Made by a program: the position numbers and the translations under genes
The notes under the pieces: generated by a model
The model's input: only the letters and a program-made list of their open reading frames with translations
What the model was told of the DNA's origin: nothing
Databases searched by the model: none
DNA from: an uncultured Dysgonomonas sp.
GTDB lineage: Bacteria > Bacteroidota > Bacteroidia > Bacteroidales > Dysgonomonadaceae
Direction of reading: 5' to 3'
Length of the DNA stretch: 64,000 bases
NCBI GenBank assembly: GCA_937995835.1
Contig: CALKIV010000002.1
Location: forward strand, 813 to 64,812
Shown: piece by piece, positions 2,138-21,558 of the stretch
Position numbering within the stretch: the first letter of the stretch is position 1
Layout: each line of letters begins with the position of its first letter

Positions 2138-2719
2138 ATGAAAAAGTTTCTAAGTCTAATACCTCATCAGTTTGTGTTTCCTCTATTCCTTATTGGAGGA
2201 ATCCTTGTCGGGCTTGGAGCATATGCAGCATACATGTCTAGGGTACATTCTTACTTATCTGATAGCCCAGAAGCATGTATTAACTGCCATATAATGACTC
2301 CATATTACAGTTCATGGAAACACAGCTCTCATGCGCAATGGGCTACTTGTAACGATTGTCATGTTCCACAAAACAATATGATAGAAGGCTATGCATTTAA
2401 GGCAATGGATGGACTATATCATGCGGCTGTATTTACAGTAAGAGGGGAACCACAAGCTATAAGGCCACGAGATGCTAGCTACGAAGTAATAATGAATAAT
2501 TGTATACGCTGTCACGAACACCTAAATACGGCTGTTGTAGAAACAGGAATGGTGTCTTATTGCGAGGTAAAAGAAGGAAAAGGGAAAGCATGTTGGGATT
2601 GCCATCAGGAGGTACCTCACACAAAGGTCAGCAATATTGCCGGAGCACCTAATGCTTATGTTCCTCTTCCCGATTCTCCTGTGCCTGATTGGTTAAAAGA
2701 AAAAATGAAAAAACAATAA
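2138..2719 (+). CDS. nrfH: Cytochrome c nitrite reductase small subunit NrfH (NapC/NirT tetraheme quinol dehydrogenase)
   Basis: N-terminal TM helix plus four CxxCH motifs (CINCH, CNDCH, CIRCH, CWDCH). It lies directly upstream of nrfA. Confidence 0.9.
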   Translation: MKKFLSLIPHQFVFPLFLIGGILVGLGAYAAYMSRVHSYLSDSPEACINCHIMTPYYSSWKHSSHAQWATCNDCHVPQNNMIEGYAFKAMDGLYHAAVFTVRGEPQAIRPRDASYEVIMNNCIRCHEHLNTAVVETGMVSYCEVKEGKGKACWDCHQEVPHTKVSNIAGAPNAYVPLPDSPVPDWLKEKMKKQ

Positions 2720-2731
2720 ATAAACAAGACT

Positions 2732-4231: not shown

Positions 4232-4284
4232 AAATATATTTCGTCATTGATTCTGAAGATAAATAAATCTAAATAGAACAAAAA

Positions 4285-5601: not shown

Positions 5602-5605
5602 ATAA

Positions 5606-6904: not shown

Positions 6905-7683
6905 CTTGGAACGAATACCTTTGGTTTGCTATACCTGCAATGCTCTGTTGGCTAATAGCCGGAGTCATTGCCTTCAGAAGCGAAAAGAATAAACTTGTAG
7001 ACATTCTCACCATTTTGGGGATAACTATCTTTGGCGCATTTATTATTGGGCTTTGGATAGGACAAGAACGTCCGCCTTTGCGCACCATGGGCGAAACTCG
7101 CTTGTGGTATTCTTTTTTTCTTGCGCTGATTGGCTACATCACTTATAAACACTGGAAATATAATTGGATACTTGGCTTCTCAGCCCTTGTGGCTTCTGTA
7201 TTTGTAATCATCAACATCGTAAAACCTGAGATACATTCCACAAACTTGATGCCTGCTTTGCAAAGTTATTGGTTTGTACCTCATGTCACAGTATATATTC
7301 TATCATACTCCATGCTGGGTGCTGCCACTATTGCCGCCTTTGTGCAATTGGTGAATATGAAAAAGAATAACATAGATGAAAAGCTCTATGACTTTATGGA
7401 TAACATTGTTTATGTAGGCTTTGGCTTCTTGATGTTAGGTCTGTTGATGGGAGCACTTTGGGCAAAAGAAGCCTGGGGACACTATTGGTCGTGGGATCCA
7501 AAAGAGACATGGGCCTTTGTTACATGCGCTGCTTATTTGGTATATATCCATCTTAGACTGCAATCTAAACATCCTAAATTTACCCTTTGGATGCTACCTA
7601 TTTCTTTCATCATGTTGATGATTACTTGGGTGGGAGTGAATTATCTTCCTGCAGCACAAAACAGTATACACGTTTATTCATAA
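6901..7683 (+). CDS. ccsA: Cytochrome c biogenesis heme-handling protein CcsA (system II)
   Basis: Polytopic membrane protein with the Trp-rich WWD motif WAKEAWGHYWSWDPKETW. Confidence 0.85.
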   Translation: MTWNEYLWFAIPAMLCWLIAGVIAFRSEKNKLVDILTILGITIFGAFIIGLWIGQERPPLRTMGETRLWYSFFLALIGYITYKHWKYNWILGFSALVASVFVIINIVKPEIHSTNLMPALQSYWFVPHVTVYILSYSMLGAATIAAFVQLVNMKKNNIDEKLYDFMDNIVYVGFGFLMLGLLMGALWAKEAWGHYWSWDPKETWAFVTCAAYLVYIHLRLQSKHPKFTLWMLPISFIMLMITWVGVNYLPAAQNSIHVYS

Positions 7684-7695
7684 TATAACTTTAAG

Positions 7696-8262
7696 ATGAT
7701 GAGACGTAAAGACAGAGAAATGAGCAAAGAGTTTGCTCACACACTGATTGATCATTCTACCTATGGTGTACTATCAGTCATTGACAAAGAGGGCAATCCT
7801 TATGGACTTCCTCTTTCAATTGTTTGTCAAGGTGAAAAACTTTATTTTCATTCTGCCAAAGGAGGGAAGAAAGTAGAAGCTTTTGAAGATGGGAAACAAG
7901 TCTGTGTCACCTTTGTAGGGAAAACAAAAATACCTGAACTGTTTTCAGAAGAAGAGCTTCAAGGCTTTTTAAAAGATGAAAGTAAGGGTGCAACCTTGAG
8001 CAGTAAGGTTTTTACCACAGAATATGAATCAGCAATGGTCTTTGGCAAAATACATTTAGTGACTGATCAGCCTGAAGCCATTGAAGCTTTACGCCTGATC
8101 TGTCAGAAATATACACCGTCCAAGATGGAATATTTTGACTTAGCCATCAAGTCAGGTTTATCCAGAACAAATATTTATCGAGTAGATATAGAAGAAATCA
8201 CAGCTAAACGAAAAAAGTTTGCCCCTTCGGGTGAAGAACTCAAATGGGGAAAGCTCGAATAA
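7696..8262 (+). CDS. Pyridoxamine 5'-phosphate oxidase family flavoprotein (Nim-like)
   Basis: 188 aa with an MRRKDRE N-terminus and the general pattern of NimA-related PNPOx-fold proteins. It starts 12 nt after the ccsA stop. Confidence 0.7.
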   Translation: MMRRKDREMSKEFAHTLIDHSTYGVLSVIDKEGNPYGLPLSIVCQGEKLYFHSAKGGKKVEAFEDGKQVCVTFVGKTKIPELFSEEELQGFLKDESKGATLSSKVFTTEYESAMVFGKIHLVTDQPEAIEALRLICQKYTPSKMEYFDLAIKSGLSRTNIYRVDIEEITAKRKKFAPSGEELKWGKLE

Positions 8263-8275
8263 TTTTTTGGAAAGT

Positions 8276-8305
8276 AAAAGGCTCACAACTAATTGTGAGC
8301 CTTTT
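8276..8305. terminator. Bidirectional intrinsic terminator hairpin between the PNPOx gene and ric
   Basis: 13-bp perfect stem AAAAGGCTCACAA/TTGTGAGCCTTTT with a 4-nt loop, flanked by A and T runs on both sides. Confidence 0.7.
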
Positions 8306-8337
8306 ATCATTAGAACCTTGATTTGTTCTAAAACAAC

Positions 8338-9063
8338 TTAACCAAAACTCTCCTCTAGTTTTATAGCTTTAGGGAATAAAATATTATTCTCCACATGGAT
8401 ATGAATATGTAAGTTTTCTTCAAACTGTCTTAATTCTTCCAAAACTAATTTATAAGAATTACATGCATATTCTGGTGCAACATAAGCACCTGTCAGCCCC
8501 GATATCTTTCTGAATCGATCCCCTTCACCATCATGTTCCTGTATCATCACCCGTATAGGATTATTTACACTTCCACAATGGAATCGAGGCAATTGCTCTC
8601 CTTTGCTTTGTGCTAAAAGAAGCTCACGAATGAGTGGAAATAAAATATTTTCTTCTTTAGCTAAATGATCGTGAAGATCAACCAATGAAGCGCTGAATAG
8701 CTCAGTCACTTGGTGAAGATGAGAATCTCTATCTCCATGTGCATTCACCACTTTGGTTAACAAAGCATGGATCTCAGTTCCACGAGTACGTATATAATGA
8801 TGATGAAACTTCACTACATAATCGATCAGAAGATCAAGCGACCACTGATCAAAATTAAGTGCTTGAGGCAGAGAGTCGCTTTTGACGCTCAACTCTAAAT
8901 CTTTGAGTAGATCATCTAACACCACTCCACTCTTCTTGACAGCTTCTGAAAGGAGGATATCTCCTCCACAACAGAAATCTATTCCATAAGATTGAAATAC
9001 TTTGGCAAATTCGATGTTTTGAGCAACAATCTCTCCTACCGTTTTATTTACAAAATCTTTCAT
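8338..9063 (-). CDS. ric: Iron-sulfur cluster repair di-iron protein (RIC; ScdA/YtfE family)
   Basis: ScdA_N-type motif YGIDFCCGG near the N-terminus, then a His/Glu-rich hemerythrin-like body. The ORF extends to 9096, but MKDFVNKTVGEIV at 9063 matches family N-termini and avoids overlapping hcp. Confidence 0.85.
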   Translation of the reverse strand: MKDFVNKTVGEIVAQNIEFAKVFQSYGIDFCCGGDILLSEAVKKSGVVLDDLLKDLELSVKSDSLPQALNFDQWSLDLLIDYVVKFHHHYIRTRGTEIHALLTKVVNAHGDRDSHLHQVTELFSASLVDLHDHLAKEENILFPLIRELLLAQSKGEQLPRFHCGSVNNPIRVMIQEHDGEGDRFRKISGLTGAYVAPEYACNSYKLVLEELRQFEENLHIHIHVENNILFPKAIKLEESFG

Positions 9064-9083
9064 TGTTATTTTTTTTTCAAAAC

Positions 9084-10733
9084 TTATGCTATCCAAGCTT
9101 CCATATCACTTTCAACATCAGAAATACCTCCAATGCCGAAGTTGTCGATCAACACTTTCAACACATTCGGTGAGATGAATGCAGGTAAAGATGGTCCTAA
9201 GTGAATATTCTTAACCCCTAGGCTCAACAATGCCAATAGTACGATCACAGCTTTTTGTTCATACCAAGCAATGTTGTATACGATTGGCAATTCGTTGATA
9301 TCTTCTAATTCAAATACTTCTTTCAGTTTCATTGCAATGACAGCCAAAGAGTAACTATCGTTACACTGTCCTGCATCCAGTACGCGAGGTATGCCACCTA
9401 TATCGCCCAATGGAAGCTTGTTGTATCTATACTTCGCACAACCAGCAGTAAGAATCACAGTGTCGTTTGGAAGTGCTTCTGCAAATTCTGTGTAATAGCT
9501 TCTACCTTTCACACGACCATCGCAACCAGCCATTACCACAAATTTCTTGATAGCCCCACTCTTCACAGCGTCTACCACTTTGTCAGCTAATTGAAGCACT
9601 TGATGATGTGCAAAACCTCCAACGATGGTTCCCTCTTCTATCTGAGTAGGTGCTGCACATTTCTTGGCAAGCTCGATGATCTCTGAAAAGTCTTTCTTGC
9701 CATTGGCATCAGCCTTTATATATTTGAAACCAGGATAGCCGGTCGAATTAGTTGTAAATACTTTATCTTTATACGAAGCGTTATTCAGTGGAGGAACAAT
9801 ACAGTTGGTTGTAAACAAAATTGGTCCGTTGAAGCTAGTAAACTCTTCACGTTGTTTCCACCAAGCATTACCATAGTTGCCCACAAAGTGAGAATATTTT
9901 TTGAATTTTGGATAGTAGTTCGCTGGAAGCATTTCGCTATGTGTATAAACATCCACACCGGTTCCTTCTGTTTGCTCCAAAAGGTCTTCCATATCTTTTA
10001 GGTCATGACCACTGATCAAGATGGCCGGATTGTTTTTCACACCGATATTCACTTCTGTCAATTCTGGATTACCATAGCTTTCAGTATTTGCTTTATCAAG
10101 CAAAGCCATTGTTTTTACCCCCACAGCACCAGTCTCTAGCACCAAAGCAATCAGTTGCTCAACACTCAATGTGCCCAAAGCAATATCGTGCATGGCACGT
10201 TGCATAAAGGTATCAACCTCTTCATCCAAGTAACCTAGTCTAGCTGCATGTTCTGCATAAGCAGCCATCCCTTTCAGTCCATAAACAGTGAGTTGAGAAA
10301 GTGAGCGTACATCCTCGTTCTTCTCTGCTAAGATGCCCACAGTAGTAGCTAAATCATCATAATTTTCTTCTTTAGCTGTCCAAGTCACTTGTGGTAGATT
10401 AGGATAATCCACACCGTTTTCTTTACAGAAAGCAAGCAATTGATCTCTTAATTCTAGGCTCTTAGTCACACGCTCTTTGATAGACGATTCGTCAAAATTT
10501 GCATTCGTAATAGTGCAGAAAAGAGCATCACGAACAAAGTCGTTAACGAATTTGAAGTCGTACTCTTTTTTGCTTTCTCTTATCTTGATACTTAATACCG
10601 AAATCCCTTGCAATGAATACATAAGCAAGTCCATGGCATTAGATGTAATAAAGTCTTTACCACAAACACCTTTCAATATACAGCCTTCTCCTTTAGCTGT
10701 CTCTTGACACTGATAACAAAACATTTTCTCCAT
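9084..10733 (-). CDS. hcp: Hydroxylamine reductase / hybrid cluster protein Hcp
   Basis: N-terminal [15 protein letters not shown] cysteine motif; 549 aa; a typical Hcp throughout. Confidence 0.95.
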
Positions 10734-10801
10734 ATTTCTCTATTTTTAGTTTATTATTTTCTAACTTCATCACAAAGAAAAAGAAATGGCATAAGGAAAA
10801 T

Positions 10802-10817
10802 TGTCACAAATGTGACA
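10802..10817. promoter_or_regulatory. Candidate Crp/Fnr-family (HcpR) operator TGTCAC-N4-GTGACA
   Basis: 6-4-6 dyad with perfect arms in the hcp/hcpR divergent region. Its centre is about 76 bp from the hcp ATG and 57 bp from the regulator ATG. Confidence 0.55.
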
Positions 10818-10866
10818 TCGATACATTTTATCAAAACTATTAGGGAATTATTATCATTTACTACTC

Positions 10867-11547
10867 ATGGAGCTTGATATATTAGATGCATTATCGAAAT
10901 CGACATTATTCGAGAATATAAAACGAGAGGAAGTAGAATCCTTTTTGGACAAAAACACCTATCGCATAAAAGAATATACGAAAAATGACGTACTGGCTCT
11001 TGCTGGCGATAAGGTTAATCATCTGATCATTGTGATCAAAGGTGAGTTGATTGCCAGAATGGTTTCTGAATCAGGGAAATATATACAAATAGACAATTTC
11101 AGTCCCGGACGTATTATAGCTCCTGCCATGCTTTTTGCTACTGATGACGTTTTCCCTGTCAATGTTATTCCTGAGGAAGATGCCTCTGTCTTCTTTATGC
11201 ATAAAGATACTTTTCTGAAAGCTATGCATCAGAATGAGAAACTGCTCCACAACTTTATTCGCATCGTTTCAGATATTAACCGTTTTTTGAGTACTAAAAT
11301 TCATTCTTTATCCCTTAAAACAATCAGGGGTAAACTAGCTGAGTATATCTTGGTGGAATCTAAGAAACAGCAAAGTCTAAATAAAATTACCTTACCTATG
11401 ACCAAACAAGAATTGGCTGACAAATTTGCTGTGGCAAGACAGGCTCTTAGCCGATCTTTATCAGAATTGGAAGAAGAAGGCTTGGTCAGCATAAGAGGGC
11501 GAGAAATAAAAATATTGGATAGAGAGCGCCTATCTCTCGTAGAATGA
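10867..11547 (+). CDS. hcpR: Crp/Fnr family transcriptional regulator, HcpR-like
   Basis: N-terminal cNMP-binding-like beta-roll and a C-terminal HTH (TKQELADKFAVARQALSRSLSELEEEG). It is divergent from hcp. Confidence 0.7.
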   Translation: MELDILDALSKSTLFENIKREEVESFLDKNTYRIKEYTKNDVLALAGDKVNHLIIVIKGELIARMVSESGKYIQIDNFSPGRIIAPAMLFATDDVFPVNVIPEEDASVFFMHKDTFLKAMHQNEKLLHNFIRIVSDINRFLSTKIHSLSLKTIRGKLAEYILVESKKQQSLNKITLPMTKQELADKFAVARQALSRSLSELEEEGLVSIRGREIKILDRERLSLVE

Positions 11548-11554
11548 AAAAGAG

Positions 11555-12028
11555 ATGGATACTAATGACACTATTCAAAGATTTGCAAATAACTATTTCG
11601 CTAACTCATCCTGCTCCGTTACTGATATTGAGCTAGAGAATCATAATAGGGACTACTGTGGTGCTAGGTTTAAAATCAATAACTATACTGTAAGATTTAG
11701 GAAGGCTAAAATAACACCCAATAAAGTTGGTCAGTTTGTGGTGGTATGGCAGAAAGATCGAAACAATGTTAATGAAGCTTATCCTTATGAGTTGTCCCCT
11801 GACTTCTTGATTGTATATACAGAAATGAAACTTAAAGAAGGTGCTTTTATCTTTCCCAAAGAGGCTTTGATGAAAAACAAAATTCTTTCTACTGACAAAC
11901 AGAAAGGGAAAATGGGGTTTCGGGTCTACCCTTCATGGGATAAAGTAGAAAGTCCTCAAGCGTTAAAAACTCAGAGATGGCAAAGTAAATACTTCGTTGA
12001 TTTCACTCAAAAAGACTCCACTGTGTAG
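11555..12028 (+). CDS. MepB family protein
   Basis: 157 aa. The motif KITPNKVGQFVVVWQKD resembles the MepB domain, from recollection. It starts 7 nt after the hcpR stop. Confidence 0.5.
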   Translation: MDTNDTIQRFANNYFANSSCSVTDIELENHNRDYCGARFKINNYTVRFRKAKITPNKVGQFVVVWQKDRNNVNEAYPYELSPDFLIVYTEMKLKEGAFIFPKEALMKNKILSTDKQKGKMGFRVYPSWDKVESPQALKTQRWQSKYFVDFTQKDSTV

Positions 12029-12110
12029 ATATATTCCCTCAAAAACGAAGTATTTTTCAAACATTGTCAAATATCTTAACTCTTAAAGGTCACTGACTCT
12101 CTTTTATTAT

Positions 12111-12118
12111 TATCTTTG
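12111..12118 (+). promoter_or_regulatory. -7 promoter motif TATCTTTG ahead of the riboswitch leader
   Basis: Exact TAnnTTTG about 30 nt upstream of riboswitch 1. I found no second such motif before riboswitch 2. Confidence 0.4.
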
Positions 12119-12150
12119 TCGACTGAAAAGAGTTCTTTATCATTTTTCAT

Positions 12151-12327
12151 CCATTAAGGTGCTTGTCTTTTTAATAAGACATAAGGGAACCACGTGCAAA
12201 TCGTGGACTGTCGCGCAACTGTAATCACTGTTAATTTCTATTTTGATAAATAGAGTCACTGTTTCTCTCAAGGAATGGGAAGGCTAAAAAAATAGAAAGG
12301 TGTAAGTCAGGAAACCTGCCTCATTGG
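12151..12327 (+). promoter_or_regulatory. Cobalamin riboswitch, copy 1
   Basis: Core AAGGGAACCACGTGCAAATCGTGGACTGTCGCGCAACTGTAA, then CACTG...GGGAAGGC, then the B12 box AAGTCAGGAAACCTGCC (12304-12320). P1 pairing CCATTAAGG/CCTCATTGG. Confidence 0.85.
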
Positions 12328-12536
12328 AATTTGACTAAAACTTCGCGTAAAAGTAAGTGTCGAGTAATAATTTTCCTCTAAAAAGAATCTGTTGAGGATA
12401 ATTTCTCCCCTATTTATTTCCTTTAATCATAAGTTGCGAAGTTCTGTGAAGAACCTTGCTAAGTTTTTATACCTTTTTTAGGATATTAACTAGAGCTAAA
12501 ATAGCATTCATGTGTTTGGTGATACTACAAATATTC

Positions 12537-12695
12537 GTTTGTGGTATTAAAAGGGAATCTGGTGCAAAACCAGAACAGTGCCCGCTACTGTAAGTCTCTG
12601 TACATATGCTTCGAGAGCACCACTAGCCACTATTGGGAGACCAATTGGGAAGGCAAACTTTGAAGCGAGACAAGTCAGGAAACCTGCCAGACAAA
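12537..12695 (+). promoter_or_regulatory. Cobalamin riboswitch, copy 2
   Basis: Core AAAAGGGAATCTGGTGCAAAACCAGAACAGTGCCCGCTACTGTAA, then GGGAAGGC, then an identical B12 box AAGTCAGGAAACCTGCC (12672-12688). It ends 70 nt upstream of the receptor ATG. Confidence 0.9.
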
Positions 12696-12765
12696 AATTA
12701 AATATCGAATCACTTCGGGGCCAAGGTGATAGTTTATAACCTTTTTATTTTTATAGAAAAAAATC

Positions 12766-14844
12766 ATGTTCAAGAAAAAATTACTATCTATTTTGTTAGT
12801 AGGATTTGTTGTTTCTGGCATTTCGGCTCAACACCAAAAACCCAAAATGTCTGACAGCGAACGCGAGCAAGCAGTAGAGCTTAACCATGTTGTGGTTACT
12901 GGGACAGGAACACACCAACGCCTGAAAGATTCTCCTGCTCCTGTGGAGGTCATCACAGCCAGAGACATCAAAAGAACAGGAATCACTGACTTTCAGCAAG
13001 CCATGTCTACTCTTGTTCCTTCTCTATCCTTCTCTGGTGGAGGTGCGATGGGGAATTATATGATGATGAATGGATTGTCTAACAAGTACATTCTTGTGCT
13101 GATCAATGGTAGAAAATTAACTGGGGATGTGTCAAACAACATCGACCTATCCAGAATCGACGTTAGCAGAATCAAGCGAGTGGAAGTGCTACATGGTGCT
13201 GGTTCGTCTCTTTATGGTTCTGATGCCATTGCCGGTGTTATCAATATCATCACAGATGAGCCTAAAGACATCATGAGTGTGTCTAGTACTACCAAGTTTG
13301 AAGAATATGGACAATTTTCTCAAATCGTAAATGTAGATTTGGCAAATGAAAAATTCGGATCATATACTTCTTATAAGCACGATCAGTCTCATGGATGGCA
13401 ACAAAGTCCATACAAATATGACAAAAAAGGAGAGCCTGCGCCTACCTTAACTCAGACAACTAATGCTTTTCACTCTAATATTATAGATCAAAGATTTACT
13501 TTCAATCCTACCAATAGATTGTCTTTTTATGCCAATGGTGGATATTATTGGAAATTGACCGATCGCCCTGAGTTCCAAAAAGACATAGATGGAGGCTCAA
13601 AATATGATATACATTACGAGTCGTACAAATTTGGACTAGGTGGAAAATATAAGCTAAATAATAAGTCTACCCTCTCATTAGACATGATTCAAGACAACTT
13701 TAATCAGAATTATAAATACACCTATGATGAGAAAGACTATAAGATAGGTGATTATAGCAAAACAAAAAGACAAAAATTTTATGATGTAGAAGCTAAGGGA
13801 ATCTTCAAATTTGCTAAAAACAACACAACTGTTTTTGGATTAGATTACCGTTCGGAGACTCTTGATCGCCCGAGTGCCAATGTGGACGAATCGCTATACA
13901 CCATGTCTGCTTATGGCCAACATGAAATCAAATTCTTAGACCACTTCACTGCTATCGGAGGATTGCGGTACGACTATCATGAAACAGCAAAAGGCCGAGT
14001 GACTCCTAAAGCAGCTCTTATGTATTCAGTAAATAACTTTAACTTCAGAGGTACATATTCTGCAGGGTTCAGAGCTCCGGGCTTAGATGAACTATATTAT
14101 TACTTATGGAAAGCAGGAACAAGCAGCACTGTTACAGTAGGTAACAAAAACTTGAATCCTGAAAAAAGTAACTATTTCTCTTTAAATGCTGAATATAAAA
14201 CGAACCGTTTTTCTCTTTCTGCTACCGGATACCTCAACTATGTGGATGATATGATCACTGATCATACTACACCATTTGCAGATATGCCTGCTGATGTGGC
14301 TGCAAAATTGAAAGCTAAGATAAAGGAAGACTTTCACATGACTGACGATGAGATCGATGGGGTTAAGAACTACAAAGAATATCTCAACCTAGAAAAAGGA
14401 CAAGTAAGAGGGTTCAACGTTAGTGCTATGGCATATCTTGCTTATGGCGTTAGTGTGAATGCTAACTATGCTTATGCTTCGGCACAAGGGAAAGACAAAA
14501 GTGGCGAATGGGGACCAGTCAGCCGTTCCATCAGACACTCTGCTACTGTGGGAGCTAACTATCTAAAACATTGGGAGAAATATCAATTGAATGTTAATCT
14601 GAATACCAGATTCCAAAGCAAGAGAAATCAACCGGGTCATAGCTATGGTGATGCCCCCGGATATGGAATATGTAATATTTTCACCAGACACACTTTCACT
14701 GGAATCAAATTTATCACATTGGAACCAGGGATTGGTATCAACAATATATTCAACAAGGTGGACGATCGTCCAAATGGCGTAAACTATGGTCTACTTTCTC
14801 CGGGAAGAACCGTAATGGCTAGTCTAAGAGTACAGTTTAAATAA
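12766..14844 (+). CDS. TonB-dependent outer-membrane receptor (BtuB/HmuR-like, corrinoid or tetrapyrrole class)
   Basis: Signal peptide, TonB-box/plug region (HVVVTGTG...SPAPVEVITARDI), a barrel with the FRAP...NLNPEKS motifs, and a C-terminal LRVQFK. It sits downstream of the B12 riboswitches. Confidence 0.85.
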   Translation: MFKKKLLSILLVGFVVSGISAQHQKPKMSDSEREQAVELNHVVVTGTGTHQRLKDSPAPVEVITARDIKRTGITDFQQAMSTLVPSLSFSGGGAMGNYMMMNGLSNKYILVLINGRKLTGDVSNNIDLSRIDVSRIKRVEVLHGAGSSLYGSDAIAGVINIITDEPKDIMSVSSTTKFEEYGQFSQIVNVDLANEKFGSYTSYKHDQSHGWQQSPYKYDKKGEPAPTLTQTTNAFHSNIIDQRFTFNPTNRLSFYANGGYYWKLTDRPEFQKDIDGGSKYDIHYESYKFGLGGKYKLNNKSTLSLDMIQDNFNQNYKYTYDEKDYKIGDYSKTKRQKFYDVEAKGIFKFAKNNTTVFGLDYRSETLDRPSANVDESLYTMSAYGQHEIKFLDHFTAIGGLRYDYHETAKGRVTPKAALMYSVNNFNFRGTYSAGFRAPGLDELYYYLWKAGTSSTVTVGNKNLNPEKSNYFSLNAEYKTNRFSLSATGYLNYVDDMITDHTTPFADMPADVAAKLKAKIKEDFHMTDDEIDGVKNYKEYLNLEKGQVRGFNVSAMAYLAYGVSVNANYAYASAQGKDKSGEWGPVSRSIRHSATVGANYLKHWEKYQLNVNLNTRFQSKRNQPGHSYGDAPGYGICNIFTRHTFTGIKFITLEPGIGINNIFNKVDDRPNGVNYGLLSPGRTVMASLRVQFK

Positions 14845-14852
14845 ATTATAGC

Positions 14853-15773
14853 ATGAAAAAGATACTTTTTATTTTAATGTTAACAACATCAATCATTTGT
14901 CAGGCACATGAAGGAGGAAACTTCGTTGCTTCTGACATTCAGAAAGAGTTAGGCAAAGGCGATAAAGTGGCGTTACTGATGGTTCATTTCGGAACCACTT
15001 ATGACGACACTCGCGCTGTCACCATAGACGCTATTAATCAAAAGGCAAAAGAAACTTTCAAAGATCTAGAGATCAGAGAAGCATACACTTCACGCATTGT
15101 TATGCGTCGTTTAAATGACCGAGGGATAGTGAAGGCTGATCCTGTGAGTGCACTTCTTCGCCTAAAAGCTGATGGCTATACACATGTTTTAGTGCAGAGC
15201 TCAAACATCATCGAAGGCGTGGAAATGGAATCTCTTAGAAGAGATGTAGCTTCTGTAAAGCAATTCTTCAAAGAAATCAGAGTGGGAAATCCCCTGTTAT
15301 ATGCTACTGAAGACTTTGAACGTGTGGCTGACATCTTCATCAATACTTATCCTGAGAAGAAAGACTTTGTGCTTGTTGGTCATGGTACTTATACCCCAAG
15401 CACAGCCTCTTATGCTATGATGGATTACATCTTCAAGGCTAAAGGAAATGGGAACTTCCATGTGGGAACTGTGGAAGCATACCCTACTTTCGATAATGTA
15501 GTAGATCAATTGAAGGTTAGAAAAGCAAAACAAGTGTGTCTTATTCCTTTCATGTTTGTTGCTGGCGACCATGCCAACAATGACATTGCAGGAGACTGGA
15601 AAGATGATTTAGAAAAAGCTGGATATAAAGTAGATGTAGCAATGAAAGGCCTTGGAGAATATCCAGAGATCCAAGACATCTTCATCGAGCATATCCAATT
15701 TATCATGCACCACCGTATGCTAGACATTATGGATAAGAAAAAAGCATACGCCGCAGGAGCAGAAGTTCACTAA
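14853..15773 (+). CDS. cbiK: Sirohydrochlorin cobaltochelatase CbiK family protein with an N-terminal export signal
   Basis: MKKILFILMLTTSIICQA signal, then the CbiK hallmarks LLMVHFGTTYDDT, VLVGHGT and FMFVAGDHANNDIAGD. The metal-binding His residues are retained. Confidence 0.85.
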   Translation: MKKILFILMLTTSIICQAHEGGNFVASDIQKELGKGDKVALLMVHFGTTYDDTRAVTIDAINQKAKETFKDLEIREAYTSRIVMRRLNDRGIVKADPVSALLRLKADGYTHVLVQSSNIIEGVEMESLRRDVASVKQFFKEIRVGNPLLYATEDFERVADIFINTYPEKKDFVLVGHGTYTPSTASYAMMDYIFKAKGNGNFHVGTVEAYPTFDNVVDQLKVRKAKQVCLIPFMFVAGDHANNDIAGDWKDDLEKAGYKVDVAMKGLGEYPEIQDIFIEHIQFIMHHRMLDIMDKKKAYAAGAEVH

Positions 15774-15804
15774 TAATAGTTTATAGAAAAAAAAATCACA
15801 ATTC

Positions 15805-18800
15805 ATGTCCCGAAAATTAGTCATAGCATGTAGTGCTCTATTGTTGATTGTCGCCTGTTTCTTTGGGTATAAATATTGGTTCGCACCCACTCATATTCTT
15901 TTTCTTAATGTGCCTAATGCACAGGCTGCAGACATCACTTTGAACAATGATAGTAAACACATCAAGATCACCTGCCTAGCAACTGATGAGGCTGAGTCGC
16001 TTGATGGATATGATGCCATAGCTGTTTTCGGGCGTGGATTACATCTCACTGAAGAGCAACAGGCAGCATTGGAAAAGATAGCCGAAAAGGGAACTCCCAT
16101 TTTAACGATCTCTTCCAATGCTGCTCTGTCTCCTCTCAATTTCAATTTAACAGGTGCTGAACGGGTGCACTTGTTACAATACTTCAATAATCCCAATTTG
16201 ACAAACTATCGGAACGCTTTACGGGCTTTGAGGCAGATAGCTACACCTCAACGCATTCCTAAAGAAGAGTTTGATGAGCCCATAGAATTGCCTAACAATC
16301 ATTATTATCACAGAGAATATGGGCAATATTTTGAGACAAAAGAAGAACTTACCAACTACTTAAAAAACAAAGGTCTCTATCACGAGGATGGAAAAAATAT
16401 TGCATTCATCAGTGGAGTTAATTTCCCAATGGAAGGCAATCGTGCTCATGTCGACACCTTGATTTATCGCCTTACAAATGAAGGCTTTAATGTATATCCT
16501 ATTGCTAGCCCACAAGGCAGAAGCGAGATGATTAAAGATTTGCTACCTGATGCTGTGGTCTACTACCCAATGGGACGACTAGGAAATGATGAATTTATCA
16601 ATTGGTTACACACAGAAAGTATTCCTCTTTTTTGTCCTTTTCCTCTGATTCAATCCACAGAAGAATGGCTTGACCCTATGAATCCTGTATCGGGAGGTGT
16701 CCTCAATGGACGTATCTTAGTGCCCGAAATAGATGGAGCGATGACTCCATTGGCTATTGCCACGCAAAACCCTCACCCAAGTGGCTATTATCTATATACT
16801 GTGGAAGAAGAACGAATGAACAACTTCATTCAACACGTAAAGAAATATTTAGGCTTGTCTCAAAAGGCCAATAGCGAAAAGAAAGTCGCCATCTGCTATT
16901 TCAGATCACCAGGGAAAGATGCTCTGCTGGCTAGTGGCATGGAGGTGATCCCCTCGCTATACAACTTCCTAAAACTTTTACAATCGCAAGGGTATAGCCT
17001 ATCTGGCTTGCCTACAACCTTAGAAGCATTTAAGAAAAGAATAAATACAGATGGATTGATACTTGGTTCGTATGCCAAAGGAGCACAAGAGGACTTCTTG
17101 AAAAATGCCAATCCTGTTTGGCTTAGTTCGAAAGAATATGAACGATGGGCTAAAGCTATTTTAGCTCCTCATAAATATCAGGAAGTGATAGATAAATATG
17201 GAGAAGCTCCCGGAGAACTACTTGTAAAAGAGGATGAATCGGGAGAAAAAAAGATCGCCTTTGCTTGTCTCCAATTTGGTAATGTGATTCTCTTTCCTCA
17301 ACCTCGCCCAGCCTTAGGCGATGATGACTTTAAGCTGGTACATGGAATGCCTGTGGCGCCACCTCACAGCTATCTTGCCCCCTATCTATATGTTCACAAA
17401 GGCTTTGGTGCTGATGCTATTATTCACTTTGGAACGCATGGCAACTTAGAATATACCCCAGGGAAGAATGTCGCCCTATCGAAGAATGATTGGGCAGAAG
17501 TCTTGGTCAATGATTTGCCCCACTTCTATTTCTATACCACTGGCAATGTGGGCGAAGGCATCATAGCCAAAAGACGGACACACGCTGTTTTAGTCACTCA
17601 CCTCACTCCTCCCTATGTGGAAAGTGGAATGCGTCAACGCTATAGTGCTATATTGGATAATATACACCACCTACTGCACACAGGGAACAGCAATAAAGTG
17701 CTTGCCCTACAAACCAAGAAAGATGTAATGAAACTTGGCTTGCACCGAGATTTGGAACTTGATTCTATTCCTGACAATCCTTTTTCTATTAAGGAGTTAG
17801 AAAAAGTAGATCTATTTATGGAAGAGATAGCCAACGAAAAAACAATGGGCGCTTTTTACACCATGGGCGAGGCTTATTCGGCTAGAGACCTGTTAACAAC
17901 CACACTGGCTGTCAGTGCCGATCCTCTTGCCTATACTTTAGCCAAACAAGATCGTGATGCTGGCAAGATCACAACTGAGCAGCTACAGAATTTTGCTTAT
18001 ATCGCACACCACTATTTGCCTACAGCTAAAAAGAGATTGACCACACTTTTGCAATCTCCGAATAAGAATATCAATACAGTAGATTCTTTGTTACAAGATG
18101 CCTTAAGATATCGAGAGCTGTTAACGCTTTCTACAGCAAATGAGTTTAAGGCAATACTACAAGGGCTAAATGGAGGGAATATTTTCCCTGCACCGGGTGG
18201 CGATCCCGTATTAAATCCAAATGTTTTGCCCACTGGACGCAATATGTATAGCATCAATGTGGAAACCACGCCAACCAAACGCTCGTGGGAAGAAGGGAAA
18301 CGTTTAGCTGAAAGCTCAATCGAAATTTATAAAGAGAAACATGGCACATTGCCTCGAAAAGTAAATTACACTTTTTGGGCAGGTGAGTTTATCAATTCCG
18401 AAGGGGCAACAGTGGCTCAAGCCTTATATATGCTTGGTGTAGAACCTGTGCGCGATTCGCAAGGACGAATTGTAGATATCAAGTTGATTTCTTCTGAAGA
18501 ATTGGGACGTTCGAGAATCAATGTCGTGGTACAAGTATCGGGGCAATTGAGAGATATTGCCGGTTCTCGATTGAAGCTGATCACTGAGGCTGTTCGCTTG
18601 GCTTCTTCTGCCACAGATGATATTTATCCCAATTTCGTTTCTTCAGGAACACTTCTTCAAGAGAAAGACTTGATCGATCAGGGTGTTCCTCCTCTCAAAG
18701 CCAGAGAAATGTCTGTGATGAGGGTCTTCGGCCCAGTCAACAGTGGATACAGCACAGGGATGATAGCCTATACGGACAACAGTGGCAAATGGGATAGCGA

Positions 18801-19725
18801 AACTGAGCTTGTAGAGGGCTACCTCAACAATATGGGAGCGATCTATGGCGATGACGAAAATTGGGGAGCTTTTCAGAAAGGTTTATTAGCCTCTGCTCTT
18901 GCCGAGACGGATGTCATCATTCAGCCTAGACAGAGCAATACATGGGGCCCAATTTCGCTCGATCACGTATTTGAATTTACTGGTGCGATGTCGCTTGCTG
19001 TAACACATATTACAGGCAAAGAACCTGATGCGCTGATGGCAGACTACAGAAATAGGAATAATAAGCGAATGCAAAACTTAAAGGAAGCAATAGCTGTGGA
19101 ATCGAGAGCAACGATCCTGAACCCGACCTTTGTAGAAGAGCGCATGAAAGGCGATGCTACAACGGCTCAACAGTTTGGAAAAATATTCCGTAATATCTAC
19201 GGATGGCAAGTGATGCGTCCTTCGTCTTTGGATAAGGAAATGTACAACGATCTTTATGACATGTATATTGCCGACAAACACAATTTGAATATTCATAAAT
19301 ATTTTGATGAGGTAAATCCTGCTGCTTTGCAAACAATCACCTCTGTGATGCTGGAAAGTGCACGCAAAGGATACTGGAAAGCGTCTCCTGAACAGCTAGA
19401 ACAAACCTTAGTACTACACACGAACAACATTAGGCAACATGGGGCAGCATGCACCGAAGTGGTCTGCGACAATCAAAAATTGCAAGGCTTCATCAGTAAA
19501 AATTTGTCGTCAGAAAAGAATGCTGAATATAAAAAGGGCATGAGCAAAGCCTTAGAAGGTGGACAAGAGGTGCAAGATGGTGTTGTCCTCAAGAAAGAGA
19601 CGAGCTATGGAGCAGATCAACCTTTGGAAGAGAATAAAAATACAATCATCATTGTAGCTGTTGTTTTACTTGCATTTTTGGGGCTCTTGGTGATGCTACG
19701 CAAAAAGAGAAAAAATCAGAAGTAA
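15805..19725 (+). CDS. CobN/magnesium-chelatase large-subunit family protein, HmuS-like, with a TM helix at each end
   Basis: 1306 aa with a CobN-type core (HFGTHGNLEYTPGK, NPNVLPTGRNMYS). N-terminal TM LVIACSALLLIVACFFGY and C-terminal TM IIIVAVVLLAFLGLLVML followed by RKKRKNQK. Confidence 0.85.
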   Translation: MSRKLVIACSALLLIVACFFGYKYWFAPTHILFLNVPNAQAADITLNNDSKHIKITCLATDEAESLDGYDAIAVFGRGLHLTEEQQAALEKIAEKGTPILTISSNAALSPLNFNLTGAERVHLLQYFNNPNLTNYRNALRALRQIATPQRIPKEEFDEPIELPNNHYYHREYGQYFETKEELTNYLKNKGLYHEDGKNIAFISGVNFPMEGNRAHVDTLIYRLTNEGFNVYPIASPQGRSEMIKDLLPDAVVYYPMGRLGNDEFINWLHTESIPLFCPFPLIQSTEEWLDPMNPVSGGVLNGRILVPEIDGAMTPLAIATQNPHPSGYYLYTVEEERMNNFIQHVKKYLGLSQKANSEKKVAICYFRSPGKDALLASGMEVIPSLYNFLKLLQSQGYSLSGLPTTLEAFKKRINTDGLILGSYAKGAQEDFLKNANPVWLSSKEYERWAKAILAPHKYQEVIDKYGEAPGELLVKEDESGEKKIAFACLQFGNVILFPQPRPALGDDDFKLVHGMPVAPPHSYLAPYLYVHKGFGADAIIHFGTHGNLEYTPGKNVALSKNDWAEVLVNDLPHFYFYTTGNVGEGIIAKRRTHAVLVTHLTPPYVESGMRQRYSAILDNIHHLLHTGNSNKVLALQTKKDVMKLGLHRDLELDSIPDNPFSIKELEKVDLFMEEIANEKTMGAFYTMGEAYSARDLLTTTLAVSADPLAYTLAKQDRDAGKITTEQLQNFAYIAHHYLPTAKKRLTTLLQSPNKNINTVDSLLQDALRYRELLTLSTANEFKAILQGLNGGNIFPAPGGDPVLNPNVLPTGRNMYSINVETTPTKRSWEEGKRLAESSIEIYKEKHGTLPRKVNYTFWAGEFINSEGATVAQALYMLGVEPVRDSQGRIVDIKLISSEELGRSRINVVVQVSGQLRDIAGSRLKLITEAVRLASSATDDIYPNFVSSGTLLQEKDLIDQGVPPLKAREMSVMRVFGPVNSGYSTGMIAYTDNSGKWDSETELVEGYLNNMGAIYGDDENWGAFQKGLLASALAETDVIIQPRQSNTWGPISLDHVFEFTGAMSLAVTHITGKEPDALMADYRNRNNKRMQNLKEAIAVESRATILNPTFVEERMKGDATTAQQFGKIFRNIYGWQVMRPSSLDKEMYNDLYDMYIADKHNLNIHKYFDEVNPAALQTITSVMLESARKGYWKASPEQLEQTLVLHTNNIRQHGAACTEVVCDNQKLQGFISKNLSSEKNAEYKKGMSKALEGGQEVQDGVVLKKETSYGADQPLEENKNTIIIVAVVLLAFLGLLVMLRKKRKNQK

Positions 19726-19734
19726 GCCAGAGGT

Positions 19735-20427
19735 ATGGAACTAATCATTCAGATATTAATGGCATTCATCTTCATTGGCTGTTGTCTCAGGCTCAGCTTC
19801 TGGAAGCTCTGGAAAAGCATGATATTCAGTGCCGTATGTGCTGTATTCATTCTTTGGAGCTATCAATATGCTGTTATGCAGTCTAAGACTCAACTTGCTG
19901 ATTATCTAAACAATGGCAAGATGATGCAAAATATGGCTGTGCTGATCACCATCGAATCGGTAATTTGCATCTCCTTTTGCTTTGCTTCATTGAGACAAGC
20001 AATAAGGAAATCTAAAAATAAATATCTGAGCCTTTTGAACTGGTATCCAGGTATTCTTATTTTCCCTGTGTTGTTCTATGTGATGACGCAATTGATCTTC
20101 AACCTTTCAGGAGTAGACTTTTCGACCATCTCTTATACGCTGGCTTTCATTGCCTTTATCAGTTTGCCTATTTTGGGTCAATTATTAAAATGGCTTTTGG
20201 ACGAAACTGAGTTCAGATTAGAGGTTTATTTTTTGGTTTGCCTCTTCATTTGCATCCTCGGACTTGTCTCCACCGTTAGTGGAGAAGTGGTCTATGCAGC
20301 AGTAGAACAGCCACTCCACCTTAAAGCCTACCTGATGGCTTTTGGCGTTTTTGCACTTGCCTTTGGTGTAGGATGCCTTTGGAATAAATATAAATGGATA
20401 ATAAAAACAAAGAAAAATAAATTTTAA
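19735..20427 (+). CDS. Polytopic membrane protein, HmuT-like (about 6 TM helices)
   Basis: 230 aa and very hydrophobic. Its position and size match the gene that follows hmuS in hmu loci. Confidence 0.55.
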   Translation: MELIIQILMAFIFIGCCLRLSFWKLWKSMIFSAVCAVFILWSYQYAVMQSKTQLADYLNNGKMMQNMAVLITIESVICISFCFASLRQAIRKSKNKYLSLLNWYPGILIFPVLFYVMTQLIFNLSGVDFSTISYTLAFIAFISLPILGQLLKWLLDETEFRLEVYFLVCLFICILGLVSTVSGEVVYAAVEQPLHLKAYLMAFGVFALAFGVGCLWNKYKWIIKTKKNKF

Positions 20428-21033
20428 ATGGAAGTTATATCTAAAGTCTTATTTTGGGTAGCTAACAGCTTGCTGATCCCCGATATCATTCTTCTGCTGT
20501 TGCTCTTCGGACGTTCATTGATCTTAATCGGTAGTTTCTATAACCAATTTATGGTGAAAAGAAAAAACGATAAGCTAATGGGAAATACTATACAAAATCT
20601 AAATGACACCTCTGTGGCAGATCTGCACAAGCAACTGCCTGAAAAAGACAATTCATTAATAATAAAATACCTCAGAGAGATCGTAGGCTCACCACAAAAT
20701 GAGACCTCGATTGATTTTCATATCACGAACTTTGAGATCGAAGCCGAAAAGGATCTTTCCTTATCCAAAATGCTTGCCAAATTAGGCCCAGTCTTAGGAC
20801 TGATAGGCACATTGATAGCAATGAGTCCTGCCCTCGTAGGCTTGTCCACTGGCGACATTTCGGGCATGGCATACAACATGCAAGTGGTATTTGCGACTAC
20901 AGTTGTAGGATTAGTGATCAGTGCTATTGGCTTGTTCACCTTACAAGTGAAACAGCGATGGTATGCGAAGGATGTCAACAACCTTGATTTTGTATCTAGA
21001 CTATTAATCGAAAATAAAAAGAGCAATGAGTAG
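20428..21033 (+). CDS. MotA/TolQ/ExbB proton-channel family protein (HmuU-like)
   Basis: N-terminal TM helix plus the C-terminal motif LGPVLGLIGTLIAMSP, typical of ExbB/TolQ. Its start abuts the previous stop (TAAATG). Confidence 0.75.
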   Translation: MEVISKVLFWVANSLLIPDIILLLLLFGRSLILIGSFYNQFMVKRKNDKLMGNTIQNLNDTSVADLHKQLPEKDNSLIIKYLREIVGSPQNETSIDFHITNFEIEAEKDLSLSKMLAKLGPVLGLIGTLIAMSPALVGLSTGDISGMAYNMQVVFATTVVGLVISAIGLFTLQVKQRWYAKDVNNLDFVSRLLIENKKSNE

Positions 21034-21364
21034 ACAACGAAGAAGAGTGTCCAGACTGATGAAAGACGACGATAGCGATCCTCTAGCAGTAGTTGTCAAC
21101 CTGTTTGATGTGGCTATGGTGTTTGCCGTAGCCTTGATGGTAGCCATGGTGATGCATATGAATATGACAGAAGTTTTTACGCAAGAAGATTATACGATTG
21201 TGAAAAATCCGGGGAAAGAGAATATGGAAATCATCCAAAAAGAGGGAAACAAGATAAATAAATATACACCCTCACAGGAGCAATCGCAAGGAAAACAAAA
21301 GGGACGGAAAGTTGGGATTGCCTACGAATTAGAGAATGGCGAAATTATTTATGTTCCTGAATGA
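21026..21364 (+). CDS. Small single-TM protein, DUF2149-like (HmuV-like; possible ExbD-type partner)
   Basis: 112 aa. A basic N-terminus is followed by the TM helix AVVVNLFDVAMVFAVALMVAMVM. It overlaps the ExbB-like gene by 8 nt. Confidence 0.55.
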   Translation: MSRQRRRVSRLMKDDDSDPLAVVVNLFDVAMVFAVALMVAMVMHMNMTEVFTQEDYTIVKNPGKENMEIIQKEGNKINKYTPSQEQSQGKQKGRKVGIAYELENGEIIYVPE

Positions 21365-21447
21365 TATTCTTTTAGAGGATTAACAAAATAAACCACTACC
21401 AAAAACAGACACTCCCTATACAATTAATCATCACATGTTAAATCAAT

Positions 21448-21480
21448 AAAAAAAGCCACTTATACTATGCATAAGTGGCT
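21448..21480 (-). terminator. Intrinsic terminator after tRNA-Lys
   Basis: Perfect 10-bp stem AGCCACTTAT/ATAAGTGGCT with a 7-nt loop, followed on the minus strand by a T-run. Confidence 0.7.
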
Positions 21481-21485
21481 TTCTG

Positions 21486-21558
21486 TGACCCCGGAGGGAT
21501 TCGAACCCTCGACCCATTGATTAAGAGTCAATTGCTCTACCAACTGAGCTACGGAGTC
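21486..21558 (-). tRNA. tRNA-Lys (anticodon CTT)
   Basis: The reverse complement folds as a cloverleaf: acceptor GACTCCG/CGGGGTC, D arm GCTC-AGTTGGTA-GAGC, anticodon arm ATTGA-CTCTTAA-TCAAT, T arm GAGGG-TTCGAAT-CCCTC, discriminator A. 73 nt, with no encoded CCA. Confidence 0.95.

Follow-up and report, generated by a model that had tools for sequence, protein, structure and literature searches.

What is a membrane-anchored protein of the CobN family doing behind two cobalamin riboswitches, in company with an exported class II chelatase and with the membrane genes of a heme-uptake operon? The question is raised by a stretch of 64,000 nucleotides (the window) from an uncultured Dysgonomonas sp. 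(contig CALKIV010000002.1), in which six genes lie behind a pair of such riboswitches. These genes constitute a real, well-formed operon of the btuS1 type described in Bacteroides fragilis, the cobamide-linked sister of the heme-uptake operon hmuYRSTUV. We propose, at a probability of about 0.35, that the operon may specify a B12-repressed periplasmic module for tetrapyrrole import and metal exchange or salvage that would feed cobamide synthesis; the substrate and the direction of the reaction are those that we infer below from sequence. Supply of B12 is a likelier purpose for it than the harvest of heme iron. The existence of the operon would not surprise a specialist, and the traits of this variant are its tandem riboswitches, its minimal content and its swapped T/U/V genes (named after hmuT, hmuU and hmuV). 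New here are the split between BtuS1 and HmuS clades with a residue signature, the link of that signature to the riboswitch, the linkage to cbi genes and the swapping of the T/U/V module.

The six open reading frames (ORFs), all on the + strand, encode a TonB-dependent outer-membrane receptor of 692 aa, of a type that we call TBDT690 (12766-14844; Pfam Plug and TonB_dep_Rec_b-barrel); an exported class II chelatase, CbiK, of 306 aa (14853-15773; PF06180, E 1.6e-78); a BtuS1-type CobN-family protein of 1306 aa (15805-19725; PF02514, CobN-Mg_chel, E 2e-271); an HmuT-like inner-membrane protein of 230 aa with six transmembrane (TM) helices (19735-20427); an HmuU-like proton-channel protein of the MotA/ExbB family, of 201 aa with three hydrophobic helices (20428-21033; PF01618, 40.1 bits, cut-off 22.9); and an HmuV-like DUF2149 protein of 112 aa with one TM helix and a periplasmic tail (21026-21364; PF09919, 118 bits). 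The first five genes are spaced by 8, 31, 9 and 0 nt, and the last two overlap by 8 nt. Upstream, on the coding strand, two aptamers of Rfam family RF00174 occupy 12140-12337 (93.6 bits, E 5.6e-22) and 12500-12705 (98.3 bits, E 2.5e-23); both match the model from 1 to 189 of 189, the gathering score being 31.5, and 60 nt separate the end of the second from the first ATG (12766). A covariance model of our own, built from nine aptamers and used to scan 1.5 Mb, assigned 129.5 bits to aptamer 1 and 149.6 bits to aptamer 2. ORFs, Pfam and Rfam thus confirm the six-gene anatomy and coordinates given in a preliminary description of this DNA, and the two full aptamers and tightly packed + strand genes bear out its view of a single unit behind two cobalamin riboswitches. 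Because the same locus occurs on an independent metagenome contig, ERZ794980 (NODE_474), with a CobN-like protein that is 100% identical, an assembly artefact is unlikely. A Pfam scan of all ORFs in the window that were 120 aa or longer revealed no BtuF/C/D, BtuG, cob/cbi enzyme, ChlI/ChlD/CobS/CobT or HmuY (PF14064), in agreement with the earlier statement that btuFCD, btuG, cob/cbi genes and AAA+ partners are missing from it. The operon is a minimal version, consisting of receptor, CbiK, BtuS1, T, U and V only; a second receptor, an XusB-like lipoprotein, PepSY_TM and cbi genes, which occur in many relatives, are all absent from it.

The CobN-family protein carries the CobN-Mg_chel domain over essentially the full profile (2-1090 of 1090) and shares with CobNST and ChlH/I/D (BchH/I/D) the metal-site histidines common to the superfamily. 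Its closest affinity is to HmuS, not to CobN, because among solved structures HmuS of B. thetaiotaomicron (9D26) scored 1164 bits, versus 340 for ChlH and 304 for CobN, and because the CobN/BchH equivalog models all fell far below their cut-offs (the best CobN scores were 580 vs 1619 and 571 vs 1248). CobN proper and ChlH were rejected as identities on account of these low equivalog scores, the TM anchors and the lack of AAA+ partners in the window. Residues 1-25 and 1276-1302 form hydrophobic helices, and basic residues occupy either terminus; because a hydrophobic helix at each end is flanked by basic residues, the body of the protein is predicted to lie in the periplasm, which fits an N-in/C-in topology with two inner-membrane anchors. 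Unlike CobNST and ChlHID, then, the window protein is membrane-anchored and probably faces the periplasm, with no AAA+ partner genes in the window, and its characterized relative HmuS runs the reverse direction without ATP (PMC12583661).

HmuS is an NADH-dependent, ATP-independent heme de-chelatase for which key residues have been named (Nath et al. 2025, PMC12583661). His538 is essential, while Met79 and His254 are described as conserved among HmuS sequences (PMC12583661). The HmuS site-2 residues F502, H506, H538, S1067, Q1198, S1199, W1202 and H1209 are all kept in the window protein, where their equivalents include F509, H513, H545, Q1043, S1044, W1047 and H1054, so that the two proteins share TM anchors at both ends and identical site-2 residues, including the essential His538. 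They differ elsewhere: Arg77, Met256 and Ala859 of the window protein replace M79 and H254, the axial heme ligands of site 1, and S1014; an insert of ~150 aa present in HmuS is missing; and overall identity is only ~42-44%. The R/M(V)/A pattern recurs in 24/24 sampled members of the clade and in all full-length R/M/A loci, compared with M/H/S in the HmuS-clade representatives.

Sequence clustering and phylogeny led to the same division. The window protein is 65% identical to P0026, a representative whose 90% cluster includes the B. fragilis 'CobN' WP_032587685. At 50% clustering, with 1.8 billion representatives, the ~1300-aa relatives form a single cluster (63% identical), after which identity drops to 52% for the next representative and to at most 43% for the HmuS-like ones, which carry the insert. 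In a bootstrapped neighbor-joining tree, the HmuS clade was supported at 100 and the riboswitch-linked clades at 99-100, with the window BtuS1 nested deep in the R/M/A clade (bootstrap 93-100). The possibility that the protein is simply HmuS was rejected, given the separate clade, the replaced heme ligands and the lack of HmuY. The preliminary description had left it to phylogeny and profile comparison to place the protein, which clusters neither with heme-specific HmuS (bootstrap 100) nor, by equivalogs, with CobN/BchH. Among Bacteroidales of the gut, BtuS1 is common, with individual 90% clusters that contain thousands of metagenomic sequences.

Twenty-seven positions are fixed differently between the BtuS1 and HmuS clades, of which five are gains of Arg or Lys; there are no basic losses and no acidic changes among them. 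Such gains fit a more anionic substrate than heme, although they are suggestive only. They fall at window residues 77, 303, 371, 510 and 1129, and two of them, R303 and K510, are common to a riboswitch-linked intermediate clade with the pattern P/M/A. K510 lies in the active-site loop that carries F509 and H513.

The association of the residue signature with cobalamin riboswitches was examined in a comparison set of 9 genome loci, 78 metagenome loci and several exact-match contigs (cited by L numbers), with counts limited to loci having enough upstream DNA and with lineages defined at 90% identity. A + strand cobalamin riboswitch heads the gene string in 41 of the 45 R/M/A loci, equivalent to 26/27 lineages, but in 0/6 HmuS-type lineages (Fisher p ~6e-6), and both P/M/A intermediates with an upstream receptor (L056 and L095) are also riboswitch-led. 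The exceptions to this rule are Prevotella-like orphans and one locus with replaced upstream DNA (L031). Together with the separate clade (bootstrap 100), this distribution favors the earlier view of an envelope system for tetrapyrrole chelation or de-chelation that is tied to corrinoid rather than to heme. Arg/Met/Ala in place of Met/His/Ser, the five basic gains and the near-perfect riboswitch link separate BtuS1 from HmuS by sequence alone.

The exceptional loci have features of their own. In the Prevotella-like L007, L009 and L086, orphan BtuS1-type genes of the R/M/A pattern are followed by T/U/V-like genes, although a tblastn map found the six-TM HmuT homolog only in L009, and there is no receptor, CbiK or riboswitch within 10 kb upstream in any of the three. 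In L031, which is otherwise syntenic with L025 and L075, the riboswitch-bearing upstream DNA has been swapped for unrelated sequence (3150-3700), making this locus a natural riboswitch-less variant of a full btuS1/cbi operon.

B. fragilis possesses two CobN-like proteins of the 'BtuS family', BtuS2 in the hmu operon and BtuS1 in the cbiK operon (Rocha 2019, PMC6460266). The latter operon consists of twelve genes, BF638R_2501-2512, with cbiK as BF638R_2502 and btuS1 a few genes downstream (PMC6460266). The gene string of P0026 (receptor, CbiK, receptor, PepSY_TM, CobN-like protein, T, U, V and four cbi fusion genes) fits this published operon. Where it refers to Rodionov 2003, Rocha 2019 (PMC6460266) credits that work with recognizing BtuS as a third CobN-related type with a predicted role in 'salvage of metalloporphyrins', and hmu-like operons without HmuY that are preceded by a cobalamin riboswitch have been described, e.g. 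in B. fragilis NCTC 9343 (Mesle 2023, PMC10100974). The window operon has in common with its B. fragilis counterpart the cobalamin riboswitch, the ~690-aa receptor (62% identical), CbiK (72%), a TM-anchored BtuS1 (65%) of the same clade and R/M/A signature, and T-U-V. It differs in having two tandem riboswitches instead of one, in T/U/V genes of the hmu type, and in being without the second receptor, PepSY_TM and the cbiHC-ET-GF-JD tail. Compared with hmuYRSTUV of B. thetaiotaomicron and Porphyromonas gingivalis, the order of receptor, CobN-like, six-TM, ExbB-like and DUF2149 genes is the same, but HmuY, which HmuS-type loci such as L094 do carry, is absent, CbiK is present, control is by riboswitch and the receptor is only distantly related. 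The absence of hmuY, the presence of CbiK and the corrinoid sensor, which had been put forward as novel departures from hmu, are therefore regular features of a named type.

Many relatives, those of the B. fragilis type among them, have a longer string that goes on with CbiH-CbiC, CbiE-CbiT, CbiG-CbiF and CbiJ-CbiD, all above NCBIfam equivalog or equivalog-domain cut-offs. Together these account for all the anaerobic ring steps that follow CbiL, and the string encodes no chelatase other than the exported CbiK. In Mediterranea, which at 71% was the closest genome in a scan of a genome collection, the cbi genes are found a few kb downstream. The cbi tail is frequent rather than universal, being absent within the available DNA of L002, L005, L006, L011, L036 and L046. 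The earlier remark that cob/cbi neighbors are missing consequently stands for the window but not as a trait of the type, since most relatives' operons continue into cbi genes. The commonest full architecture in human-gut metagenomes (L019-L034, L044, L070, L075, L077 and L082) has two receptors and two CbiK proteins, in the order riboswitch, TBDT785, XusB-like, CbiK, PepSY_TM, BtuS1, T-U-V, TBDT690, CbiK2 and cbi genes. In this layout, a receptor paired with CbiK seems to form a module that is repeated, and ihtA-ihtB of P. gingivalis is a comparable pair.

The second chelatase of the operon, CbiK, scored 264 bits against a PF06180 cut-off of 26.2 and retains the catalytic GHG, VE and GDH motifs (His-Glu-His) in alignment with Salmonella CbiK. 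Its N terminus bears a leader, MKKILFILMLTTSIICQA followed by HEGGNF, with a cleavage-type site CQA/HEG, within an extension of ~37 residues that is missing from Salmonella CbiK. The best solved relatives were the periplasmic CbiK(P) of Desulfovibrio vulgaris (2XVX), Salmonella CbiK (1QGO) and P. gingivalis FetB (9B86), and in view of its N-terminal export leader the window protein is placed with the exported CbiK(P)/FetB group, with which it shares the class II fold and the catalytic His/Glu/His. A cytoplasmic pathway enzyme was rejected as its identity: the cytoplasmic-CbiK equivalog NF047852 (NCBIfam) gave 209.7 bits against a cut-off of 400, and the export leader is unlike Salmonella CbiK. 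The heme-bridging His96 of CbiK(P) is a Glu in the window protein. As in ihtA-ihtB of P. gingivalis, the chelatase gene directly follows that of a TonB-dependent receptor; FetB (IhtB) is a lipoprotein partnered with the ABC transporter IhtCDE, whereas the window CbiK stands beside BtuS1 and T/U/V. FetB, an exported CbiK homolog, chelated Co and Mn into a porphyrin analog in vitro and exhibited no reverse activity on hemin (PMC13065792). The exported CbiK proteins of the window and of L001-L006 have a motif after the signal peptide, (H/Y/N)(E/G)G(E/G)NF(V/I)(A/T)SD, that is absent from the cytoplasmic Salmonella CbiK.

The receptor begins with a signal-peptide-like segment (MFKKKLLSILLVGFVVSGISA, followed by QHQ) and shares 60-62% identity with the first receptor in Mediterranea (L001 and L002) and in btuS1 loci of the B. 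fragilis type, as opposed to only 24-28% with receptors of HmuS-type loci. In NCBIfam, the TonB-hemin model (heme/hemoglobin subfamily) was its best match at 158 bits, followed by BtuB at 125 bits, both far below their cut-offs, and its best matches in a sequence search of the PDB were Cir and BtuB (70-88 bits).

The last three genes of the operon have a different history. In median identity, the window T, U and V proteins are 49/71/80% identical to those of HmuS-type loci, versus 33/47/65% to those of other btuS1-type loci; these values, along with HmuS as the best solved match of the CobN-like protein, support the earlier proposal that the last four genes are homologous to hmuS-T-U-V. The HmuT-like protein, for which neither Pfam nor NCBIfam offered a family, is 49-56% identical to HmuT of HmuS-type loci vs 25-36% for most btuS1-type loci, and its homologs are always downstream of a CobN-like gene in the loci compared. 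An AlphaFold (AF2) model of it, made from a 30-sequence alignment (mean predicted local distance difference test score, pLDDT, 72.8), yielded in Foldseek no PDB match at E <0.4 and none with a query-normalized TM-score >0.4. The TM segment of the DUF2149 protein, AVVVNLFDVAMVFAVALMVAMV, carries an Asp (NLFDVAMVF), and when aligned by hhalign with approximate sequences of Escherichia coli ExbD/TolR, the TM helix and its Asp alone aligned, at a probability of 6.7%. The window U and V proteins group with hmu-type loci at bootstrap 100 even though the window BtuS1 is nested among the btuS1 clade. Because of this incongruence between the BtuS1 and U/V trees, we conclude that T/U/V were exchanged between hmu and btuS1 operons more than once; retention of an ancestral hmu-type T/U/V was rejected in view of the deep position of BtuS1 in its clade. 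Hmu-type U/V genes under a btuS1-clade protein are also found in L092, in L011 and in a rumen-type subgroup (L042, L046, L048 and L052), while L003, L006, L012 and L019 have the other, btuS1-type U/V. In the Mediterranea metagenome-assembled genomes L001 and L002, the riboswitch, receptor, CbiK and BtuS1 are followed by no T/U/V, which there may be supplied in trans (e.g. by a resident hmu operon) or be dispensable. These findings suggest that T/U/V is a generic module able to serve either CobN-like protein.

How might these parts work together? Cobalamin riboswitches repress when ligand is bound; plentiful B12 would thus shut the operon off through the tandem riboswitches, and scarcity of B12 would permit its expression. 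The TonB-dependent receptor would then bring an exogenous tetrapyrrole into the periplasm, the candidate substrate being a highly carboxylated sirohydrochlorin-, siroheme- or uroporphyrin-type precursor from neighboring microbes. BtuS1 would strip or handle the resident metal with the His-centered site that HmuS uses for heme iron, and the secreted CbiK would insert cobalt, a reaction that CbiK carries out on sirohydrochlorin. The HmuT/U/V-like proteins may give proton-motive energy and/or inner-membrane passage, and the product would enter the anaerobic corrin pathway (CbiL, H, F, G, D, J, E, T and C). The scheme builds on what the sequences show, namely the family memberships, the riboswitches, the conserved catalytic residues, the missing heme-ligand pair of HmuS, the signals of topology and, among relatives, the clade-wide tie to the riboswitch and the operons joined to cbi genes; cobalt chelation by FetB and the basic gains of the clade also speak for it. 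It presumes which substrate is taken up, which way metal is transferred, how BtuS1 and CbiK share the work, that proton-motive force is used and that the genome has cbi genes elsewhere. A need for precursor salvage is plausible on other grounds: de novo cobamide synthesis is confined to 0.6% of Bacteroidetes, 'Tetrapyrrole precursor salvagers' are known, precorrin-2 synthesis is lacking in P. gingivalis, and stool contains uroporphyrin III (PMC6461909). In B. fragilis, furthermore, no heme-iron defect was seen upon mutation of btuS1 alone or of cbiK (BF638R_2502) (PMC6460266).

A more specific version of this salvage scheme would make BtuS1 operons the entry point of the 'enigmatic' corrin pathway in tetrapyrrole-auxotrophic Bacteroidales: an imported isobacteriochlorin of other microbes (e.g. 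siroheme or sirohydrochlorin) would lose Fe or another metal to BtuS1 in the periplasm and receive Co from CbiK, with T/U/V as a proton-motive motor replacing the AAA+ ATPases of cytoplasmic class I chelatases and with the product passing to CbiL-H-F-G-D-J-E-T-C. The interchange of T/U/V would then reflect one generic energizing module serving two periplasmic de-chelatases. We consider this version unlikely. If BtuS1 and CbiK do process salvaged tetrapyrroles for cobamides, this would explain why a corrin-ring pathway has been kept in heme- or tetrapyrrole-auxotrophic Bacteroides and Porphyromonas, and early tetrapyrroles or cobalt-tetrapyrroles would become a new cross-feeding currency in the B12 ecology of the gut. 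It would also mean that a class I chelatase scaffold can be driven from the periplasmic side. That HmuS takes iron out of heme anaerobically was shown only in 2025. For its riboswitch-controlled sister BtuS1, the signature in the residues, the tie to the riboswitch and the linkage with cbi genes make the function of the family directly testable and point to specific mutants.

Several observations weigh against the proposal of a salvage module feeding cobamide synthesis. The argument from charge gains is statistically weak (sign test p ~0.03). The ligand of the receptor could not be assigned from the NCBIfam and PDB searches, in which BtuB, Cir and heme receptors gave weak and mixed matches. 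Nor was a protein identified that could import a cobalt-isobacteriochlorin across the inner membrane, the HmuT-like protein being without a recognizable fold relative in the PDB, and the window's T/U/V belong with those of hmu loci. The relatives' operons do not include CbiL; cbi genes are absent altogether from the 64-kb window, as they are within 10 kb in L011, the closest relative with long flanks. Because it lacks cbi neighbors, the window operon could serve a different need, e.g. for cobalt or for complete corrinoids, and here, more than in B. fragilis, handling of cobalt or corrinoids competes with precursor salvage as the explanation. Finally, a B. fragilis btuS1 btuS2 double mutant grows worse on heme-iron than the btuS2 single mutant (PMC6460266), and BtuS1 can therefore contribute to heme-iron use.

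Harvest of cobalt survives best among the alternatives, although it is itself somewhat unlikely. Cobalt tetrapyrroles or chelates (unusable corrinoids, breakdown products or cobalt porphyrins) would be imported, BtuS1 would act as a cobalt de-chelatase, CbiK would only bind or shuttle the released Co2+, which would then feed cytoplasmic cobamide synthesis, and the riboswitch would represent the usual B12 control of cobalt supply. Riboswitch control, cbi linkage and a fully conserved de-chelation center all agree with this idea, and many relatives encode in addition a surface lipoprotein resembling XusB (PF14298) and a PepSY_TM protein, which typically belong to machinery for capturing and reducing metal chelates; the minimal operon of the window, however, is without either of them. 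The 'salvage of metalloporphyrins' predicted for BtuS by Rodionov 2003, in the form in which PMC6460266 cites it, likewise agrees with cobalt harvest. A catalytically intact exported chelatase, on the other hand, has no obvious role if metal release is the sole task, and since de novo ring synthesis is beyond most Bacteroidetes (PMC6461909), cobalt would give no B12 by itself unless a ring precursor were imported as well.

A second heme-iron system, in which BtuS1 would be an isofunctional paralog of HmuS and the riboswitch would reflect cross-talk, or a supply of porphyrin or iron when B12-dependent metabolism fails, is quite improbable. In its favor, no other solved structure matches nearly as well as HmuS, whose catalytic site is identical, the T/U/V genes are of the hmu type, the receptor's best NCBIfam match, though far below cut-off, is the heme/hemoglobin subfamily, and genes to the left of the operon encode the multi-heme NrfHA and cytochrome c assembly proteins. 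In the B. fragilis genetics, the heme-iron phenotype of the double mutant favors this alternative, but btuS1 and cbiK single mutants are without such a defect (PMC6460266), and FetB is without reverse activity on hemin (PMC13065792). Replacement of Met79/His254 throughout the clade, the absence of HmuY, the divergence of the receptor from its HmuS-type counterparts, the joining of relatives' operons to cbi genes and the restriction of the riboswitch to one side of the clade split also argue against it. That the operon is an accessory for uptake or remodeling of complete corrinoids, with a BtuB-like receptor and with BtuS1 and CbiK binding or handling corrinoids in the manner of BtuG, BtuH or BtuF while the metal stays unchanged, is very improbable: cobalamin riboswitches of Bacteroides reportedly head corrinoid-transport loci as a classical arrangement (an account associated with Degnan et al. 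2014), the receptor is weakly similar to BtuB, and L004 has a riboswitch and btuFCD-like genes directly upstream of its btuS1-type operon, but the catalytic His of both chelatases is strictly conserved, which argues for catalysis rather than binding alone, the window has no BtuG, BtuF, BtuC or BtuD, and joining to ring-building cbi genes would be needless for complete cobamides.

The tandem arrangement of the riboswitches is peculiar to the window, which contains the only same-strand aptamer pair directly before the operon among ~45 related riboswitch-led loci. Aptamer 1 is closest to the single riboswitch of L011 (65%), the nearest relative with upstream DNA available, rather than to aptamer 2, which is closest to other lineages (63-65%). 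A recent duplication was rejected, as neither aptamer is among the other's six closest relatives (59-65% identical). Tandem arrangements are known elsewhere, including the tandem TPP riboswitches of Bacillus anthracis, tandem glycine aptamers, and SAM plus AdoCbl in the metE leader of B. clausii; the window likewise has complete aptamers of one class in series on one leader, with a terminator-like hairpin after the first, and its switching is a prediction from sequence.

A candidate Bacteroidetes-type -7 promoter box, TAtcTTTG, lies at 12111-12118 on the + strand; TAnnTTTG is found at a matching distance upstream of 8/9 aligned riboswitches, and in the window riboswitch 1 has the box but riboswitch 2 does not. 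This short motif might act as the promoter box before riboswitch 1. Between the aptamers, RNA folding places a terminator-like hairpin (12436-12459) and a U-rich tail (12436-12482 in all, + strand): the minimum free energy fold shows the hairpin GCGA-AGUUCU...AGAACC-UUGC followed by the U-rich tract, whereas the centroid fold instead pairs ACUUCGCG (12340-12347) with the 5' arm of the hairpin. A terminator/antiterminator switch after riboswitch 1 is conceivable from these folds, although folding energies there are no better than those of shuffled sequences (z -1.2 and -1.7, not significant). A further hairpin at 12709-12730, followed by a U-rich stretch, lies 3' of aptamer 2, where the leader folds with z +0.9 relative to shuffles.

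At the other end of the operon, a terminator scan revealed a perfect 16-bp hairpin (21450-21484, no strand assigned) between the last gene and a convergent tRNA-Lys(CTT) on the - strand (21485-21558); it is likely the end of the operon unit. The left flank (2138-12028) is a nitrite and nitrosative-stress cluster with nrfH, nrfA, ResB/CcsA-type cytochrome c assembly genes, a ScdA/RIC hemerythrin protein, hcp (hybrid-cluster protein), a Crp/Fnr regulator and a MepB-like gene. From its nrfHA and cytochrome c assembly genes it follows that the organism uses multi-heme cytochromes; no link between this cluster and the operon was found.

Cobalamin riboswitches are arranged in other ways among the relatives. 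L095 (JGI 3300009856) has three in 20 kb (2184-2376, 11824-12066 and 17419-17596), one of which leads a string of receptor, a protein with BACON and HmuY domains, a P/M/A CobN-like protein of 1417 aa and T-U-V, while the other two head a carboxyltransferase/biotin-carboxylase cluster and nrdI-nrdEF. The B12 control of an HmuY-fold protein in this locus hints that heme may not be the only tetrapyrrole bound by HmuY-like proteins. Divergent back-to-back riboswitch pairs, on the - and + strands and 70-800 bp apart, occur in L012-L014, L016-L018, L028, L029, L034, L044, L077, L078 and L082, and in L012 the leftward riboswitch precedes genes for a small Cys-rich protein and a transporter of the Asp-Al_Ex family.

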